Source: a bacterium
GTDB taxonomy: Bacteria; UBA8248
Reading direction: 5' to 3'
NCBI GenBank assembly: GCA_965219955.1
Contig: OZ244799.1
Coordinates: 576,001 to 640,000 of the forward strand
Length of the DNA: 64,000 nt
Shown: positions 2,613 through 61,402 of the stretch, in pieces
How positions within the stretch are numbered: position 1 is the first letter of the stretch
How the letters are laid out: each line of letters opens with the position of its first letter
The notes under the pieces: model-generated
What the model was told of the DNA's origin: nothing
Databases searched by the model: none
Seen by the model: only the letters and a program-made list of their open reading frames with translations
Program-made: the position numbers and the translations under genes

Positions 2613-4499
2613 ATGGGACGAGTGCCGGAAGAGGTGGTCGATCAGATAAGGGACGGCGCCCCGATAGAGGACGTCGTCGGCGAGTTCGTGAACCTCAAGA
2701 AGGCGGGGACGAACTACAAGGGGCTTTGTCCGTTCCATGACGAGAAGACGCCCTCGTTCAACGTGAACCCGCGCATGGGCATCTACAAGTGCTTCGGGTG
2801 CGGGGCGGGGGGCAACGCCTTTCAGTTCCTGATGCAGCACGAGGGCATGACTTTTCCAGAAGCCCTCGAACGCCTGGCGAAGCGCCAGGGAATCGACCTC
2901 TCCCGCTATGAGGATTCCCGGGAGCAAGGCCCCCGGAAGCCCGACGCGCGCGGGAAGATACTCGCCGCGAATCGCCTGGCGGCCGATTTCTTCAGGGCGG
3001 CGCTCAAGAGCAGCCCGGGCGAGCGGGGCCGCAAGTATCTGGAGGAGCGCGGCGTTGCGCAAGACGCCCTCGACAGGTTCCGGGTCGGGTTCGCGCCCCC
3101 GCGCTGGGACGCCCTCATCAAGGCGGCGGGCAAAAGGGGCGTATCTCCCGGTGACCTCGCGGAGGCGGGCCTCGCGGTGCGGAGTGAAGACGGAAGCCGG
3201 ATATACGATCGCTTCAGGGACCGCATCATGTTCCCCATCCGCAACCACGAGGGCGAGATCGTGGGCTTCGGCGGGCGTTCGCTACCCGACAGCGATTCGC
3301 GCCACGCCACCGCGAAATACGTGAATTCACCGGATACGGCGCTCTTCAGGAAGGGCCGGACTTTATACGGCTTTTACGAGGGCAGGGAGTCGATTCGCGA
3401 GAAAAAGCGCGTCCTGGTGACGGAGGGGTATTTCGACGTCATATCGCTTTGGCGGCACGGGTTCCAGGAGGCCGTGGCGCCTCTCGGCACGGCCCTGACC
3501 GCCGAGCACATCAGGAGTCTCAGGGCGCACGCCGAGGAACTCGTGTTCGTCTTTGATCCCGATGCCGCGGGTCTCGCGGCTTCCGAGCGCGCGGGTTCGG
3601 TGGCGGGGCGTATGCTCGGCCTCGCGGCCGCGCCCGACCTGCTCGTGGCCGGCGACGTGCTGCGCAAGAACTTCATCGACCGCGACGGTGCGGGCGCCGT
3701 GCGCCTCCGGGTGGTGAACCTGCCCGAAGGGCGCGACGTCGATACGTTTTTGGGGGAAAACGGGGCGGAGGATTTCGCCCGGCTCCTCTCCTCCGCGGAG
3801 GGCATCCTGGAGAACACCGTCCAGACCGCGATGGCCGGAATCGCCGCGGGCGCGAGCCAGGCCGAGAAAATCGAGGCCATCCAGCGGCTTTTGCCCATAC
3901 TCGGGGCTTGCCACCGCAGCGTTCAGGACCAATATTTGGCATTGCTGGAGGATCAGCTCGGGATTCCCTATCCCACGCTGACGGCCATGGTGAGGAGGAT
4001 GCTGGCGGAAAACGCCCGGGAAAGCTCGCCCCGGGGAGAGGAAAAAAAGGTCGATCTGCTGGGGGAGAACCTCGAGCGTCCAAAATTCGAGACGGACGCC
4101 TTGCAGCTTCTGCTCATGAAGCCGGAGTTGGCGTCCGAGGTGCCCGATGGCCTGATGACCGACCCCGCGGTGGGCGAGGTCCTCTCTCTCATGAAATCGC
4201 AGGATGCGGCCTCGCTCACGGCGGCTTCCATTGCGGACAGGCTGGAGAGTCCCGCCGCGCGCGCCCTGGTGGTGGAGTTGGCCGTCGTGGAGGTGGAGCC
4301 CGAAGAAGTCGAGGCGGAGCTTTTCGATTGCATCGAGAGGCTCAGGGAGCGGAGCCGCCGAAAGGTGGAAGCGGATTTGATGAAGCGCATCGAGCAGACG
4401 CGCAAGGATGAGGGGGAGGATTCCCCTGAAATGTGGAAACTCCTGGAGCGGAAAAACGCGCTTTTGCGCGAGCGGCAGAGAGCGGCCTCTCCGCGCTGA
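2613..4499 (+). CDS. dnaG: DNA primase
   Basis: CPFHDEKTPSF..CFGC zinc finger, DRFRDRIMFPI, KYVNSP, TOPRIM EGYFD; directly upstream of rpoD. Confidence 0.97.
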   Translation: MGRVPEEVVDQIRDGAPIEDVVGEFVNLKKAGTNYKGLCPFHDEKTPSFNVNPRMGIYKCFGCGAGGNAFQFLMQHEGMTFPEALERLAKRQGIDLSRYEDSREQGPRKPDARGKILAANRLAADFFRAALKSSPGERGRKYLEERGVAQDALDRFRVGFAPPRWDALIKAAGKRGVSPGDLAEAGLAVRSEDGSRIYDRFRDRIMFPIRNHEGEIVGFGGRSLPDSDSRHATAKYVNSPDTALFRKGRTLYGFYEGRESIREKKRVLVTEGYFDVISLWRHGFQEAVAPLGTALTAEHIRSLRAHAEELVFVFDPDAAGLAASERAGSVAGRMLGLAAAPDLLVAGDVLRKNFIDRDGAGAVRLRVVNLPEGRDVDTFLGENGAEDFARLLSSAEGILENTVQTAMAGIAAGASQAEKIEAIQRLLPILGACHRSVQDQYLALLEDQLGIPYPTLTAMVRRMLAENARESSPRGEEKKVDLLGENLERPKFETDALQLLLMKPELASEVPDGLMTDPAVGEVLSLMKSQDAASLTAASIADRLESPAARALVVELAVVEVEPEEVEAELFDCIERLRERSRRKVEADLMKRIEQTRKDEGEDSPEMWKLLERKNALLRERQRAASPR

Positions 4500-47528: not shown

Positions 47529-48413
47529 ATGTTTTCCCCACGATTCCTCGTTTGCCTGCTCCTCACCTGTTTCCTGGGCGTCACGGCCATTTCCGCGCAA
47601 GCGCAGAAGATCCGCAAGAAAACGTCGGGGTTTGACGGCGCCGCGTTGGTGCACGTTCCCCCGGGGTGGTTCGTGATGGGCAGCAAGTCCGGCGACAAGG
47701 ACGAGCGCCCGCCCCGGAAAGTTTTCGTCTCCGGCTTCTGGATTGGTCAGACGGAAGTGACGGCGGAGCGCTTCGCGCGCTTCGTCGCCCAAACGGGCTA
47801 CAAGACGACGGCCGAGAAGCGGAACTGGTCCTGGACCTGGGATGCTTCTCTCAGGAAGGGAAAGGGCGGCTGGCGAAAGACGAAGGGGGCGAACTGGCGC
47901 CGGCCCGAAGGCCCGAAATCCACCTGGAAGACCACGCCGACGCAGCCCGTCTCCCACGTGAGCTGGCCCGATGCGGAGGCTTATTGCGGGTGGGCGGGCA
48001 GGCGCCTGCCCACCGAGGCGGAATGGGAACGCGCGGCGCGCGGCGGGGACGGAAGGCGCTACCCCTGGGGGAAGGGACGCGACGCGATGAGAGCCAACCT
48101 GAAAGGGGGCAAGGACGGGTTCCCCGGCGTCGCTCCCGCGGGCCGCTTCCCTAAGGGCGCGAGCCCCTTCGGGGCGCTCGACATGTCGGGCAACGTCTGG
48201 GAATGGGTGGCCGACCGCTATGGTTCGAGGGCCTATAAGAAAATGGCCGAGCGCGACCCGCACGGGCCTGCGAAGGGAAAAACGAGAGTCGTCCGCGGCG
48301 CCTCCTGGGGCAGCCCCGTCGCCTGGGCCACGGCGCACAACCGCTACCACCGCCCGCCCCGTTATACGAACAACAAGATCGGCTTTCGCTGCGCCACGGG
48401 CGAGGGTGGCTAA
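47529..48413 (+). CDS. Secreted FGE-sulfatase/SUMF1-domain protein
   Basis: Signal peptide, [34 protein letters not shown]. Confidence 0.88.
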
Positions 48414-48540
48414 TACGGCCGGAGTCGTACGGCTCACTGGTTTGTGAGGGGAAGTTCAGCTTTCCACCAACAAAGTGTTCGCGACTTTATAATAGAGAAT
48501 GACGAGGGAAATCAGGCCGAGCGCCGGTTTGGTTCTCCGT

Positions 48541-48822
48541 TCACTTCGACGTTCTCTCAATCAGGGCTTCCAACGCTCTCATGCTTTCGCGGTGGCGGGT
48601 TTCCAGAGCTCCCATGCTCTCGCGGTGGCGGGTGTCCAGAGCGGCCATGGTTTCCTCGTGCTGCTTGTCTCTGGCTGCAGAAGCGCGGTTCATCTGTCTC
48701 AGACCATATAAAATGAGAAAACATTGAACGCTGCCCACGACAAGCGAGATCAAGGCGTGTATGGCCGAAATCCAGAGGCCGATACGTGATAGTTCGAGTG
48801 TCGCCATTTGAAATTCCGTCAT
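48541..48822 (-). CDS. Small TM + hendecad coiled-coil protein, array copy 1 (93 aa)
   Basis: GAGGAGGGG SD; hydrophobic helix, then HEETMAALDTR-HRESMGALETR-HRESMRALEAL; ends LIERTSK. Confidence 0.75.
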   Translation of the reverse strand: MTEFQMATLELSRIGLWISAIHALISLVVGSVQCFLILYGLRQMNRASAARDKQHEETMAALDTRHRESMGALETRHRESMRALEALIERTSK

Positions 48823-48867
48823 CTTTTCCCCTCCTCGGGTATCTAGTAGGAGTGGAGTCGCCTCTCG

Positions 48868-48896
48868 AATATGACGCACGGGCGAAGGAAAAGCAA
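48868..48896 (-). promoter_or_regulatory. Repeated sigma70-like promoter, unit 1
   Basis: TTGCTT-N17-CATATT on the minus strand. Confidence 0.55.
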
Positions 48897-49036
48897 CATT
48901 TGCCCTCGCCCGAGCCGTTGGTTCGGATTTCTCCGGTGGAGCGGATTGCGCCGGGATGGTGCAGCGGCGCCGCGAGAGGGCGTGCATCAAGGAAATGACG
49001 AGGGAAATCAGGCGGAGCGCCGGTTTGGTTTTTCGC

Positions 49037-49309
49037 TCACTTCGACGTTCTTTCAATCAGGGCTTCCAGGGCTCTCATGCTTTCGCGGTGGCGGGTATCC
49101 AGAGCTCCCATGCTCTCACGGTGGCGGGTGTCCAAAGCAGCCATGGTTTCCTCGTGCTGCCGCTTGTTTTGTTCTTCCCTTCTCTCGGTGCCGCGCTGCA
49201 TGAGTTTCAGCCCGAACCAGATGAGCGCGCATTGTCCGACACCCACCATGAATGAGATAAAGGCGTGAATCGCCGAAATCCAAAGCGTCAAAATATCAAA
49301 CTGCGTCAT
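49037..49309 (-). CDS. Small TM + hendecad coiled-coil protein, array copy 2 (90 aa)
   Basis: Same SD, architecture and C-terminus as copy 1. Confidence 0.75.
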   Translation of the reverse strand: MTQFDILTLWISAIHAFISFMVGVGQCALIWFGLKLMQRGTERREEQNKRQHEETMAALDTRHRESMGALDTRHRESMRALEALIERTSK

Positions 49310-49354
49310 CTTTTCCCCTCCTCGGGTATCTAATAGGAGTGGAGTCGCCTCTCG

Positions 49355-49383
49355 AATATGGCGCACGGGCGAAGGAAAAGCAA
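49355..49383 (-). promoter_or_regulatory. Repeated sigma70-like promoter, unit 2
   Basis: TTGCTT-N17-CATATT on the minus strand. Confidence 0.55.
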
Positions 49384-49523
49384 CATCTGGCGTCGCCCGA
49401 GCCGTTGGTTCGGATTTCTCCGGTGGAGCGGATTGCGCCGGGATGGTGCAGCGGCGCCGCGAGAGGACGTGCATCAAGGAAATGACGAGGGAAATCAGGC
49501 GGAGCGCCGGTTTGGTTCTCCGT

Positions 49524-49763
49524 TCACTTCGACGTTCTTTCAATCAGGGCTTCCAGGGCTCTCATGGCTTCACGGTGGCGGGTATCCAGAGCGGCCATGG
49601 TTTCCTCGTGCAGCCGTTTGCTTTGCTCTTCCCTTCTCTCGGTGCCGCGCTGCATGAGTTTCAGCCCGTACCAGATGAGCGCGCATTGTCCGACACCCAC
49701 CATGAATGAGATAAAGGCGTGAATCGCCGAAATCCAAAGCGTCAAAATTTCAAACTGCGTCAT
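49524..49763 (-). CDS. Small TM + hendecad coiled-coil protein, array copy 3 (79 aa)
   Basis: Near-identical to copy 2 but with one 33-bp repeat fewer; frame preserved. Confidence 0.75.
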   Translation of the reverse strand: MTQFEILTLWISAIHAFISFMVGVGQCALIWYGLKLMQRGTERREEQSKRLHEETMAALDTRHREAMRALEALIERTSK

Positions 49764-49808
49764 CTTTTCCCCTCCTCGGGTATCTAGTAGGAGTGGAGTC
49801 GCCTCTCG

Positions 49809-49837
49809 AATATGGCGCACGGGCGAAGGAAAAGCAA
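49809..49837 (-). promoter_or_regulatory. Repeated sigma70-like promoter, unit 3
   Basis: TTGCTT-N17-CATATT; array homology ends just past the -35 box. Confidence 0.55.
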
Positions 49838-49954
49838 CCATGCGCCTGCCTGCGTCATCCCGTCTTTTTGGCATAGACAATGGTCTTCATTTCGTTGGAA
49901 TCACCGCCGGACCTCTTTCCTGAAGGCATCGCGCGCCATTGACCAGGCCCGCAG

Positions 49955-50926
49955 TCAATTCGTCGGCGCGGGCGGCACGACGAGCACGCCGTGCGCGCCG
50001 TTTCCCACGCGGATTTTCCTGATGTTGCGGTGACGTCTGGCGTCCATCACGAACACTTCCCTGGAATCCCTGTTCGTCACGTATGCGAGCGCGCCGTCGG
50101 GCGTGAAGGCGATGAGGTCGGGCCGCACCCCCTGCCTGACGCTGGCGACGCGCTTCTGCGCGGGGAGCGAGAAGACCGACACCCTGTTCTTGTGAGGCAG
50201 GGTGACGTAGAGGAACTTCCCGTCCGGCGTGATGAGGGCGTCGTGCGGCTCGCCGGAGAGTTTGATGGTGCGGATGATTTCCAGGGTATCGAGGTCGACC
50301 ACGCTGTAGGAGTTCCGCTCCCCGTTCATGACGTAGAGCCTCTTGCCGTCGCGCGTCACATCGATGCCCTCGATGTAGTGGCCCGCCTCGATCTGCCTGA
50401 TGGGCTTTCTCGTCTCGAGATCAACGACGGAGACGTCTTCGCTGAGCTCGTTCGCGACGAAGGCGAAGCGGCCGTCGGGGCTCAGCTTGATGTTCACCGG
50501 GTTGTTCCCCCCGTGCTTGATCAAGCCGATGATTTTCCGGGCCGCGACGTCCAGGATCGTCACGTTGTCCGAATAGGTGTTCACGAAATAGGCGCGCGCG
50601 CCGTCGGGGGAGAACGCCAGGTTGTAGGGGTCGCGGCCCGCGCGCACGCGGCGGATGAATTTGAGCTTGTGCGTGTCGAAAACGCGCACGAAGGCGCTGC
50701 CGTCGTTGATGACGTAGGCGTGGCGCCCGTCTGGCGCGAGGGAGAGGCGGTTCGCCTTCCTGCCCGCGGGGATCGTCTGGATGACCTCATGCGTATCGCG
50801 CGAGATGACGCTCAGCGTGCCGTCGCGCGTGTTCGTAACGAGAATCCGCTCGCCCGCCGCAAGCGCAGGCGCGGGAGACGAGAGCAGAAGAGCGAGAACG
50901 ACGAGGGAGAGCATGAGGTCGCGCAT
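49955..50926 (-). CDS. Secreted YVTN/YncE beta-propeller protein
   Basis: Signal peptide; about seven PDG..AYV.N....VSV.D repeats. Confidence 0.88.
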   Translation of the reverse strand: MRDLMLSLVVLALLLSSPAPALAAGERILVTNTRDGTLSVISRDTHEVIQTIPAGRKANRLSLAPDGRHAYVINDGSAFVRVFDTHKLKFIRRVRAGRDPYNLAFSPDGARAYFVNTYSDNVTILDVAARKIIGLIKHGGNNPVNIKLSPDGRFAFVANELSEDVSVVDLETRKPIRQIEAGHYIEGIDVTRDGKRLYVMNGERNSYSVVDLDTLEIIRTIKLSGEPHDALITPDGKFLYVTLPHKNRVSVFSLPAQKRVASVRQGVRPDLIAFTPDGALAYVTNRDSREVFVMDARRHRNIRKIRVGNGAHGVLVVPPAPTN

Positions 50927-61126: not shown

Positions 61127-61402
61127 ATGTCCCTTTCGAACCGGATAAAACCCATCAGCTACTTAAAGACGCACGCCGAGGAAATCGTCCGTACGCTCGG
61201 GGAGCGGGGGGAGCCGCTGGTGATCACCCAGAACGGGGAAGCCAAGGTGGTCATGCAGGACATCGACAGCTACGAGCGGATGCAGGAGACGCTCGCCCTG
61301 CTCAAGATTCTCGCCCTGGGCGACCGCCAGATTGAAGCCGGGCGGGCGCAACCCGCCGCCGAGGTGACGGCGCGGCTCCGGGAGCGGCTATCGGCCCGCT
61401 GA
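61127..61402 (+). CDS. Phd/YefM family antitoxin
   Basis: IKPISYLK.HA.EI, EPLVITQNGEAKVV, ETLALLKILA. Confidence 0.9.
   Translation: MSLSNRIKPISYLKTHAEEIVRTLGERGEPLVITQNGEAKVVMQDIDSYERMQETLALLKILALGDRQIEAGRAQPAAEVTARLRERLSAR

Follow-up and report, generated by a model that had tools for sequence, protein, structure and literature searches.

A tandem gene array from a large unnamed family of predicted single-helix membrane proteins with histidine/methionine hendecads

What are the three small genes that stand head to tail at positions 48498-49838 of this stretch of DNA, and what might their products do? The stretch, hereafter the window, comprises 64,000 nucleotides (nt) of contig OZ244799.1 in assembly GCA_965219955.1. 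A preliminary description made from its letters had read the array as self-contained cassettes for a small membrane/coiled-coil protein family of an unrecognized type. Here we report that the array arose by recent tandem copying within a large accessory family of single-helix membrane proteins that has no entry in Pfam or NCBIfam. With a probability of about 0.75, each product is a single helix with an outward N-terminus, one membrane span and a cytoplasmic rod of 11-residue repeats (hendecads), and its copies pack in parallel and in register. The family is new and definable, of a familiar kind (the membrane-anchored coiled coil), with an unusual His/Met hendecad core and a striking amplification. 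The earlier interpretation is thus partly supported: its structural part holds up, and its functional part is open to several readings.

The repeated region lies on the minus strand and is made of three head-to-tail units with start-to-start spacings of 496 and 487 bp, in line with the ~490-bp units first described. Repeat search recovered copies of a repeat, D1, at 48498-48664, 48994-49160 and 49481-49647, as well as blocks of 300 and 292 nt with 93-94% identity between units. Gene 1 (48541-48822, minus; P0001, 93 amino acids (aa), ‘type A’) is the last in the direction of transcription and was delineated by translation and by repeat family D4. Gene 2 (49037-49309, minus; P0002, 90 aa) and gene 3 (49524-49763, minus; P0003, 79 aa) are both of ‘type B’. 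All three open reading frames (ORFs) begin with the conserved start, and their sizes equal the 79-93 aa given before. P0002 carries three H-x3-M-x2-L hendecads, and alignment shows that gene 3 has exactly one 11-residue repeat (33 bp) fewer than gene 2. Tandem Repeats Finder detected a 33-bp period, equal to 11 codons, inside genes 1 and 2 (2.8 and 2.5 copies, respectively). The motifs VG..QC.LI..GL and H-x-E-[ST]-M-x-A-L and the ending LIERTSK were all found in the tandem proteins. Downstream of gene 1, a tail of the repeated block (48498-48540, minus, ~43 nt) is homologous to the starts of the spacers between units. The preliminary description of the array sequence was therefore accurate, save for a correction to its promoter that is given below.

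A fourth member, P0004 (61549-61923, plus strand, 124 aa), had been proposed as a diverged relative elsewhere in the window. It is a true one, matching the profile hidden Markov model (HMM) of the family with an E of 1.1e-40, and stands out by four additional heptads (L-A-x-Q-Q type) at its N-terminus and by more extended C-terminal repeats. None of the four window proteins gave a threshold match in Pfam, NCBIfam, PHROGs, PADLOC or PDB sequences, which bears out the claim that the family had not been recognized. The preliminary description had proposed an HMM search of the genome and of public MAGs. A profile of the four proteins (E up to 1e-3) found 25 matching frames in the 4.28-Mb genome, so the family is dispersed, far beyond the four members first noticed, and not one local duplication. 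Searched against 1.84 billion proteins, a 28-sequence profile found 509 cluster representatives at 50% identity with E up to 1e-3 and 142 with E up to 1e-10. The sole name given to any member by any source is ‘hypothetical protein’. A description of the family was not found in open full texts; supplementary tables of sponge-symbiont comparative-genomics papers fell outside that search and could list it as an unnamed orthogroup. In the ESM Atlas, the best scores were 0.81, below a meaningful level and to unnamed clusters, and a search of named entries with P0004 came back empty. The scale is considerable for a family still unnamed: there are at least 509 clusters, and in some genomes 10-26 genes with their own promoter-like sites.

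The genes are coding genes under purifying selection. Nei-Gojobori comparison of the array genes with one another and with eleven orthologs, drawn from eight related assemblies, gave ratios of nonsynonymous to synonymous substitution rates (dN/dS) of 0.09-0.41 in 36 of 36 pairs, with 0.09-0.26 for gene 1 against its orthologs; this contradicts the absence of such selection that was named beforehand as grounds for abandoning the family. Moreover, purine-rich Shine-Dalgarno sites lie ahead of the conserved M-T start in nearly all paralogs. Genes 2 and 3 are young duplicates, with a dS of 0.081 and a dN of 0.033. The span-coding part of gene 1 shares 69-70% nucleotide identity with genes 2 and 3, and its 3′ part and flanks share 93%. 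Because the span types A and B also occur side by side in the arrays of relatives, both types are old, and the flanks look homogenized, perhaps by gene conversion.

The reality of the triplication, which the preliminary description had flagged as a possible assembly artifact, was examined in relatives and in public sequencing runs. The source genome is a single 4.28-Mb contig. In eight related assemblies, the same flanking genes, of the FGE-sulfatase family and of the YVTN propeller type, enclose the site with flanks 82-93% identical. These assemblies hold one copy (L022, L026 and L027) or two (L021, L023, L024, L025 and L028). In genome G033 the syntenic site is empty, with 153 bp between the flanking genes, and in G024 it holds one diverged copy; copy number at the site therefore ranges from 0 to 3 between related genomes. 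Contig pieces from an independent run labeled sponge metagenome (X5) match with zero mismatches parts of gene 1 (48609-48820), gene 2 (49039-49202) and gene 3 (49558-49656), the last crossing the 33-bp deletion of gene 3. Since these pieces cover the distinguishing parts of all three genes, three distinct copies exist outside this assembly. No contig spans the array, and the parts uncovered in runs X5, X6, X17 and X18 are uninformative, as contigs break at repeats; the three-copy arrangement on one molecule is seen in this assembly alone. In two further genomes, G023 (L096) and G034 (L100), the site syntenic to 48414-49954 holds an unrelated small ORF with a signal-peptide-like start, interrupted by a stop in G034. 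This intergenic site between convergent flanking genes seems to be a hot spot for accessory genes.

AlphaFold2, given the family alignment, modeled P0002 as one helix over residues 3-89 (predicted local distance difference test score (pLDDT) 90.8) and P0004 as one helix over residues 3-116 (pLDDT 86.4). The span motif is present in 194 of 223 members, and in these Lys plus Arg average 0.58 over the 15 residues that lead into the span and 4.03 over the 15 that follow it. Under the positive-inside rule, basic residues mark the cytoplasmic side; this charge bias would therefore place the N-terminus outside and the repeats in the cytoplasm. If it truly does so, the host-interaction role suggested earlier becomes doubtful. 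In the same 194 members, self-identity reaches 0.20 at two offsets over a background of ~0.08: at 7 in the N-terminal parts, a heptad period, and at 11 in the C-terminal parts, where lesser peaks stand at 7, 18, 22 and 25. Within the hendecad, His predominates at position i (0.35), followed by Met four residues later (i+4, 0.35), Ala at i+6 (0.48) and Leu at i+7 (0.38), each the most frequent residue at its position. An 11-residue core periodicity is thus evident in the DNA period, in the offset-11 self-identity and in the His/Met/Leu profile alike. H-x3-M occurs at least once in 205 of the 223 members and at least twice in 150, and Met and His make up 7.0% and 5.3% of the tails. Of the 223 members, 173 have the C-terminal motif.

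The span is the most conserved segment, with Q26, I30, G33, L34 and M37 invariant in 28 sequences. Conservation varies with a helical period that peaks at 99 degrees per residue, and the power at 98.2 degrees was reached by ~1% of 5000 permutations. When the lines of positions i, i+4 and i+7 in P0002 are traced back by elevens, they appear to meet the invariant or nearly invariant span residues Gln26, Ile30, Leu34, Met37 and Gly23 as well as His15, Ser19, Ser12 and Thr8, which would make one seam along the whole helix. The architecture is readily defined by an M-T-E-F/Y-E start, a G-x-x-Q-C-x-L-I-x-x-G-L span, H-x3-M hendecads and an L-I-E/R-R-T end, and annotators gain a definable family even if its function proves mundane. 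The paralogs of this genome measure 50-253 aa, most of them 79-209 aa, and paralogs and orthologs differ in length by whole 7- and 11-residue units with both ends retained. Five of the 25 paralogs lack H-x3-M and have ordinary hydrophobic residues at the seam, with the architecture retained.

The oligomer prediction proposed in the preliminary description was run with four copies of P0002, the one stoichiometry modeled. The model scored 0.76, compared with 0.00 for the best of three controls; three runs agreed in at least 95% of contacts, and the partner pLDDT was at least 83. The mark for this score was reached by 20 of 30 proteins solved as same-chain pairs and by 1 of 23 solved as single chains, counts that apply only roughly to a model with its own alignment and four copies instead of two. 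The closest modeled contacts are in register (55-55, 26-26, 30-30, 59-59 and 66-66). The modeled interface includes Gln26, Ile30, His52/63/74, Met56/67/78, Leu59/70/81 and Ile85 and holds exactly the residues of the seam. This model supports a parallel, in-register homo-oligomeric bundle. Of the membrane-anchored oligomeric coiled coil suggested at the outset, the membrane anchor and the coiled coil are thus supported by the single-helix models and the 11- and 7-residue periods, and the oligomer is plausible as a model.

The family is distributed unevenly. In its own phylum, 23 of 51 genomes match, this genome (G000) included. In its own genus, 21 of 22 other genomes do, with 1-26 matches each; none of 19 genomes from eight other genera of the same taxonomic family matches, and among 10 more distant genomes of the phylum 1 does. 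Relatives also occur in metagenome-assembled genomes (MAGs) labeled Nitrospinota, Candidatus Binatia, Alphaproteobacteria, Gammaproteobacteria, Pseudomonadales, Candidatus Tectimicrobiota, Deltaproteobacteria, Thermodesulfobacteriota and Syntrophobacterales. Five of these MAGs contain 24, 6, 9, 4 and 4 matches; the MAGs with 4-24 matches bear the labels Alphaproteobacteria, Binatia, Gammaproteobacteria, Tectimicrobiota and Thermodesulfobacteriota. In the order to which the alphaproteobacterial MAG belongs, the family is confined to 3 of 23 genomes, which have 10-24 matches apiece, and is absent from the other 20. At one alphaproteobacterial locus, six copies stand next to each other and a seventh lies 2 kb away. 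This all-or-nothing, multi-copy distribution marks the family as a lineage-specific trait, probably one driven by ecology. Near-identical DNA was aligned in one sponge-metagenome and one marine-metagenome run (X5 and X6) from two studies, and further runs, listed with shares of 0.22-0.56, carry marine, sponge and coral metagenome labels.

Individual paralogs have orthologs 55-76% identical in related species of the genus, so the expansions predate these species and have been retained. The best identity of other-phylum members to any paralog of this genome is 29-49%, against the 55-76% of within-genus orthologs, and recent transfer across phyla is thus unsupported. Nor does composition argue for a foreign origin: mean G+C at third codon positions is 0.74 in the family and 0.78 in neighboring ORFs (a set defined by a crude ORF filter), too small a difference, and 0.63-0.67 in the three tandem genes. 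A second tandem triplet (genome positions 2271705-2273024, minus; locus L084:4004-5299) encodes proteins of 85, 89 and 93 aa with GTG starts. After each of its genes there is a strong G+C-rich hairpin followed by a T-run, resembling an intrinsic terminator, and since such a hairpin follows each gene, these units appear to be monocistronic.

Each array gene is preceded by its own leader. The 75 nt before the start codon are near-identical in all three units and end in GAGGAGGGG ahead of ATG, which agrees with the conserved leader and strong Shine-Dalgarno site described before. In gene 1, this block (48823-48897, minus) consists of the promoter-like TTGCTT-N17-CATATT followed by 45 nt up to ATG; in gene 2 it lies at 49310-49384 (minus) and in gene 3 at 49764-49838 (minus), with TTGCTT at 49837-49832 and CATATT at 49814-49809. 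The spacer between gene 2 and the gene 1 leader (48898-49036, minus) has its twin between gene 3 and the gene 2 leader (49385-49523, minus). Across spacer and leader, genes 1 and 2 have 205 of 214 upstream positions in common, and the central ~95 nt of the spacer have no counterpart in either outer flank of the array. Upstream of gene 3, only the last 75 nt resemble the other units; similarity ends at 49838, one base 5′ of TTGCTT, just where homology had been said to stop. At 48876-48915 and 49363-49402, the TTGCTT hexamers of genes 1 and 2 are spanned by an inverted repeat (17 nt, 82% complementary; 10 nt, 90%), which gene 3 lacks because homology has ended there. This repeat might act as an operator or mark where the preceding transcript stops.

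The promoter proposed earlier stands in part. Its hexamers are present in the conserved block, and they agree with the sigma-70 consensus TTGACA/TATAAT at only 7 of 12 positions; a consensus scan of 48300-50100 at a threshold of 9/12 returned no promoter-like site. Ten of the 25 paralogs have a site of at least 9/12 located 36-49 nt before the start codon, compared with a mean of 0.64 and a maximum of 4 in 200 shuffles of the upstream regions under the same criterion. The 45 nt from CATATT to the start codon in the array fall within this range. The hexamers in the conserved block, together with a spacing that matches the paralog sites, lend indirect support to a putative array promoter. The units thus look self-contained, as first stated: each has its leader and Shine-Dalgarno site, and many paralogs have a promoter-like site of their own. 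An Rfam search of 48300-50100 (E up to 1) gave no match, and folding of the 136-nt spacer at 49388-49523 gave no sign of a structured RNA (z -0.38). In several paralog leaders (e.g., 49764-49810, and those at L083, L077, L085, L082 and L078), an anti-Shine-Dalgarno stretch can pair with the Shine-Dalgarno site. The pairing sequences differ between paralog groups (CUCCU/AGGAG, CCCAC/GUGGG and CUCCA/UGGAG) in a manner that resembles compensatory change, but the fold energies do not exceed those of shuffled leaders.

No recurrent neighbor emerged from a Pfam scan of 117 ORFs at 18 loci of this genome and 69 ORFs at 14 loci of other phyla. The neighbors are ordinary metabolic and housekeeping genes, mostly for soluble enzymes, and the family thus resembles an independent accessory gene equipped with expression signals of its own. 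A Phd/YefM-type antitoxin gene (61127-61402, plus; PF02604, E 2.8e-18) precedes P0004 by 146 nt and is followed by no recognizable toxin gene. We rejected a type II toxin-antitoxin pair: the adjacency occurs at 1 of the 18 loci, across the 146-nt gap, and a separate promoter-like site serves P0004. Beyond this genome, the pairing was seen in just two syntenic relatives (L067 and L069), which marks it as inherited synteny and not a family trait. Integron cassettes were also rejected, as no inverted repeat recurs downstream of the genes (the one recurrent pair is that around TTGCTT), no integrase adjoins the array, and its units are 93-94% identical copies of each other, unlike the differing cassettes of an integron.

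The nearest analogy in genomic behavior is provided by the Bdr proteins of Borrelia, a host-associated bacterium, likewise a large paralogous membrane family with a promoter of its own. The repeat region of Bdr proteins is central and varies in length, and their membrane anchor is at the C-terminus. The present family is instead anchored near the N-terminus, and its genes are chromosomal, between housekeeping genes, whereas bdr genes are borne on plasmids or prophages. Pfam and NCBIfam scans (E up to 10) returned no Borrelia family, although the presence of a Bdr model in these libraries was unverified. In the passages cited, 18 Bdr paralogs are counted in B. burgdorferi and 18 in B. duttonii (PMC2525819), the proteins are associated with the inner membrane, a bdr gene is driven by a promoter of its own, and what the family does is described as undiscovered (PMC10016077).

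For the His/Met core, two precedents are instructive. In the cited description of the KCa3.1 channel, four His residues at the ‘a’ position of a parallel four-helix bundle bind a copper ion on its axis (PMC6023178). Both cases present a parallel four-helix coiled coil on a membrane protein, here as modeled; in KCa3.1 the bundle belongs to a eukaryotic channel, is built on heptads and has one His ring, whereas here His would occupy the core of every hendecad, with predicted rings every 11 residues alternating with Met rings. A profile search of PDB (E up to 10) gave no match, hence no sequence relation to KCa3.1. The second precedent, SilE, shares the repeated short His/Met motifs. Its HX2M and MX2H motifs are described as binding silver (PMC11904771), and for SilE/PcoE the cited passages associate Ag(I) binding by His/Met motifs with helix formation (PMC5008109, PMC11904771 and PMC12931370). 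SilE is soluble, periplasmic and disordered without metal and spaces its ligands by i+3; this family has a membrane span, predicted cytoplasmic repeats and an i+4 spacing (H-x3-M). A secreted sponge of the SilE/PcoE type was rejected, as the acidic N-terminus has no basic signal-peptide region and no profile matched. In their 11-residue core periodicity and their parallel bundle, here modeled, the proteins also resemble tetrabrachion-like hendecad coiled coils, which are extracellular stalks with hydrophobic cores, formed by a parallel bundle of about four helices. There is no sequence relation to these, and the seam here consists of His, Met and Leu and appears to continue through a membrane span.

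Based on these data, we propose the following arrangement. A short acidic N-terminus (M-T-E-F/Y-E), sometimes extended by heptads, would face outward. It would lead into one membrane span whose polar and small face comprises, in P0002, His15, Ser19, Gly23 and Gln26-Cys27, followed by Ile30, Leu34 and Met37. A basic stretch would mark the cytoplasmic side, and behind it a rod of variable 11-residue repeats (H-x-E-x-M-x-A-L-x-x-x) would run to the terminal L-I-E/R-R-T. Several copies would lie side by side, parallel and in register, along one full-length seam, and the length of the rod would be set by the number of 7- and 11-residue units in each paralog. Because His, Met and Leu take the seam positions of every hendecad, the core of such a bundle would be a ladder of His rings and Met rings. 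Such a ladder may bind metal ions of the soft or borderline class, Cu and perhaps Zn or Ag, and would then serve as an anchored metal buffer or conduit on the inner side of the membrane. The genes are probably monocistronic, each with its own leader. They lie between unrelated housekeeping genes, and at a given site related species have gained them, lost them or amplified them in tandem. If correct, this would be a natural metal-lined coiled coil, and a single seam running from outside through the membrane into a His/Met/Leu rod would make an unusually simple test object.

Metal binding in the His/Met-lined core is the function we tentatively favor, because His and Met are enriched family-wide at core positions and because KCa3.1 and SilE set precedents; we regard it as possible, at appreciably less than even odds. 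The idea, one of those in the preliminary description, gained indirect support from H-x3-M in 205 of 223 members and from the position of these residues in the modeled interface. Several points weigh against the proposal. No metal-related gene is a conserved neighbor, and no metal-binding family was matched in Pfam or NCBIfam. Met and His ligands are typical of the periplasm, whereas the charge bias puts the repeats in the cytoplasm, a topology that itself derives from the positive-inside rule. Since 5 of the 25 paralogs have no H-x3-M, a metal ladder cannot be the function of the whole family; the span motif and the C-terminal L-I-E-R-T are conserved at least as well as His and Met, and metal binding leaves both unexplained. 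The oligomer is a model, of a sort that readily bundles long amphipathic helices, and a conservation period of 99-101 degrees fails to separate a hendecad (98.2) from a plain helix (100). Expression, finally, is weakly hinted at by two short RNA-library contigs, from libraries that may contain DNA: one from run X17 covering 48494-48753 (gene 1, 260 nt, 7 mismatches) and one from run X18 covering 49055-49282 (gene 2, 228 nt, 18 mismatches). In its boldest form, a homo-tetramer would act as a metal ‘wire’ across the membrane, with a polar path through the span (Thr/Ser/His/Ser/Gly/Gln) and a His4/Met4 ladder that passes Cu(I) or another soft metal along the axis of the bundle. At least five differently labeled phyla would then have kept the genes independently and amplified them to 10-26 copies in adapting to a habitat they share, possibly a host-associated one. 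We consider this quite improbable.

How do other functions fare against the same evidence? The rods might be structural and free of any ligand, forming scaffolds or spacers of graded length on the cytoplasmic face in which His and Met are merely tolerated in the core. They might organize membrane domains, tether a partner through the L-I-E-R-T cap or set a distance. The modular lengths, from 50 to 253 aa in one genome by whole repeat units with both ends kept, the retention of the C-terminal and span motifs in most members, the persistence of the architecture in paralogs devoid of His/Met and the four-copy model, which passes, all fit such a role. With no conserved neighbor, no partner is identifiable, and a purely structural role leaves the seam enrichment of His (5.3%) and Met (7.0%) unexplained; we hold this reading to be credible but rather unlikely. 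The Met- and His-rich tails, the many copies with their own promoter-like sites and the near-identical DNA in sponge, marine and coral metagenome runs would also suit stress buffers, that is, cytoplasmic helices that act as sacrificial oxidant scavengers or pH-responsive elements, with a capacity that scales with copy number. Their Met and His residues lie on the buried seam of the model and not on its surface, however, and neither a methionine sulfoxide reductase nor another redox gene recurs as a neighbor, so that we give this possibility little credence. A comparably small chance attaches to modulators of a larger membrane complex, in which the span motif would dock on a transporter, protease or respiratory complex, in the way of known small membrane proteins, and the rods would reach its cytoplasmic parts. 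The span is indeed the most conserved segment, and family genes sometimes sit inside membrane or redox operons (L047; L064 and L071). These operon contexts all differ, most neighbors are soluble metabolic enzymes, twenty-five copies per genome would require many targets, and the modeled homo-oligomer already accounts for the conserved face.

Small pores deserve separate attention, as toxin/pore and phage-exclusion roles had been raised from the outset. Single-span holins are small, have one span and a charged helical tail and act as homo-oligomers, a plan that this family shares with Holin-X (PF07332) and Holin_BhlA (PF10960). A holin-, viroporin- or toxin-like oligomer could line its channel with the face formed by Thr8, Ser12, His15, Ser19, Gly23 and Gln26, and its leader could limit translation. 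Such a channel would be consistent with the position of the conserved Gln-Cys and of His, which lie in the span and on the modeled interface, and with the ability of several paralog leaders to mask their Shine-Dalgarno sites. P0004 shows weak profile similarity to PF07332 (E 0.0088) and to the phrog_20 holin (E 0.046), and one ESM Atlas neighbor cluster contains 28% Holin_BhlA members, at the low score of 0.78. Every holin score falls under its curated cut-off, however; for membership of PF07332 (Phage_holin_3_6), P0004 reaches 16.5 bits against a gathering cut-off of 28.4, and P0001-P0003 have no match, so we rejected that assignment. None of the four proteins matched any of the 5027 defense models of PADLOC-DB (E up to 1), and no lysis gene, prophage or defense neighbor was found among the 117 and 69 ORFs scanned around family loci. 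Compared with holins, the family stands apart in its tens of copies per genome, its conservation as orthologs across species and its lack of a phage or lysis context. Ten to 26 matches per genome, with orthologs 55-76% identical, would be unusual retention for toxins that have no antitoxin, and the lone Phd/YefM adjacency is inherited synteny in two relatives. Type I toxins, very small hydrophobic peptides usually under about 60 aa and controlled by an antisense or overlapping small RNA, fit poorly with the sizes of the paralogs; no Rfam family matched the array, and the RNA-library contigs carry no strand information. The Shine-Dalgarno-sequestering folds of 25 leaders are no more stable than mononucleotide shuffles (z -1.7 to +0.9). 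The toxin/pore and phage-exclusion roles therefore have no positive evidence in their favor, and we judge a pore improbable.

A search for domain fusions among longer proteins yielded one protein (174 aa), and seven longer representatives that we inspected owe their length to extra repeats, upstream read-through or low-complexity tails. One of the seven, P0177 (268 aa), has a C-terminal extension of ~160 residues that is not of low complexity and may reflect a real fusion or a mis-called gene. Some MAGs of other phyla have a family gene within a conserved operon. At L047:3974-4216, it lies between pal (OmpA family) and a TolA-binding TPR gene, and at two other loci (L064, ~4001-4183; L071, ~3815-4147) it separates the genes for the 2Fe-2S and the molybdopterin subunit of a xanthine-dehydrogenase-family molybdenum hydroxylase. 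Beside the family gene L076:4163-4438, a 156-aa protein (L076:4645-5112, minus) has a CCDC90-like match (PF07798, E 4.9e-08, 33.4 bits, cut-off 33.5), which is another membrane-associated coiled-coil type. At the locus of the second triplet, an ORF that runs off the edge of the locus (L084:8732-9319, minus; ~2276433-2277023 of G000) has a sterol methyltransferase C-terminal domain (PF08498, E 3.1e-16), which is unusual for a bacterium, together with a methyltransferase domain.

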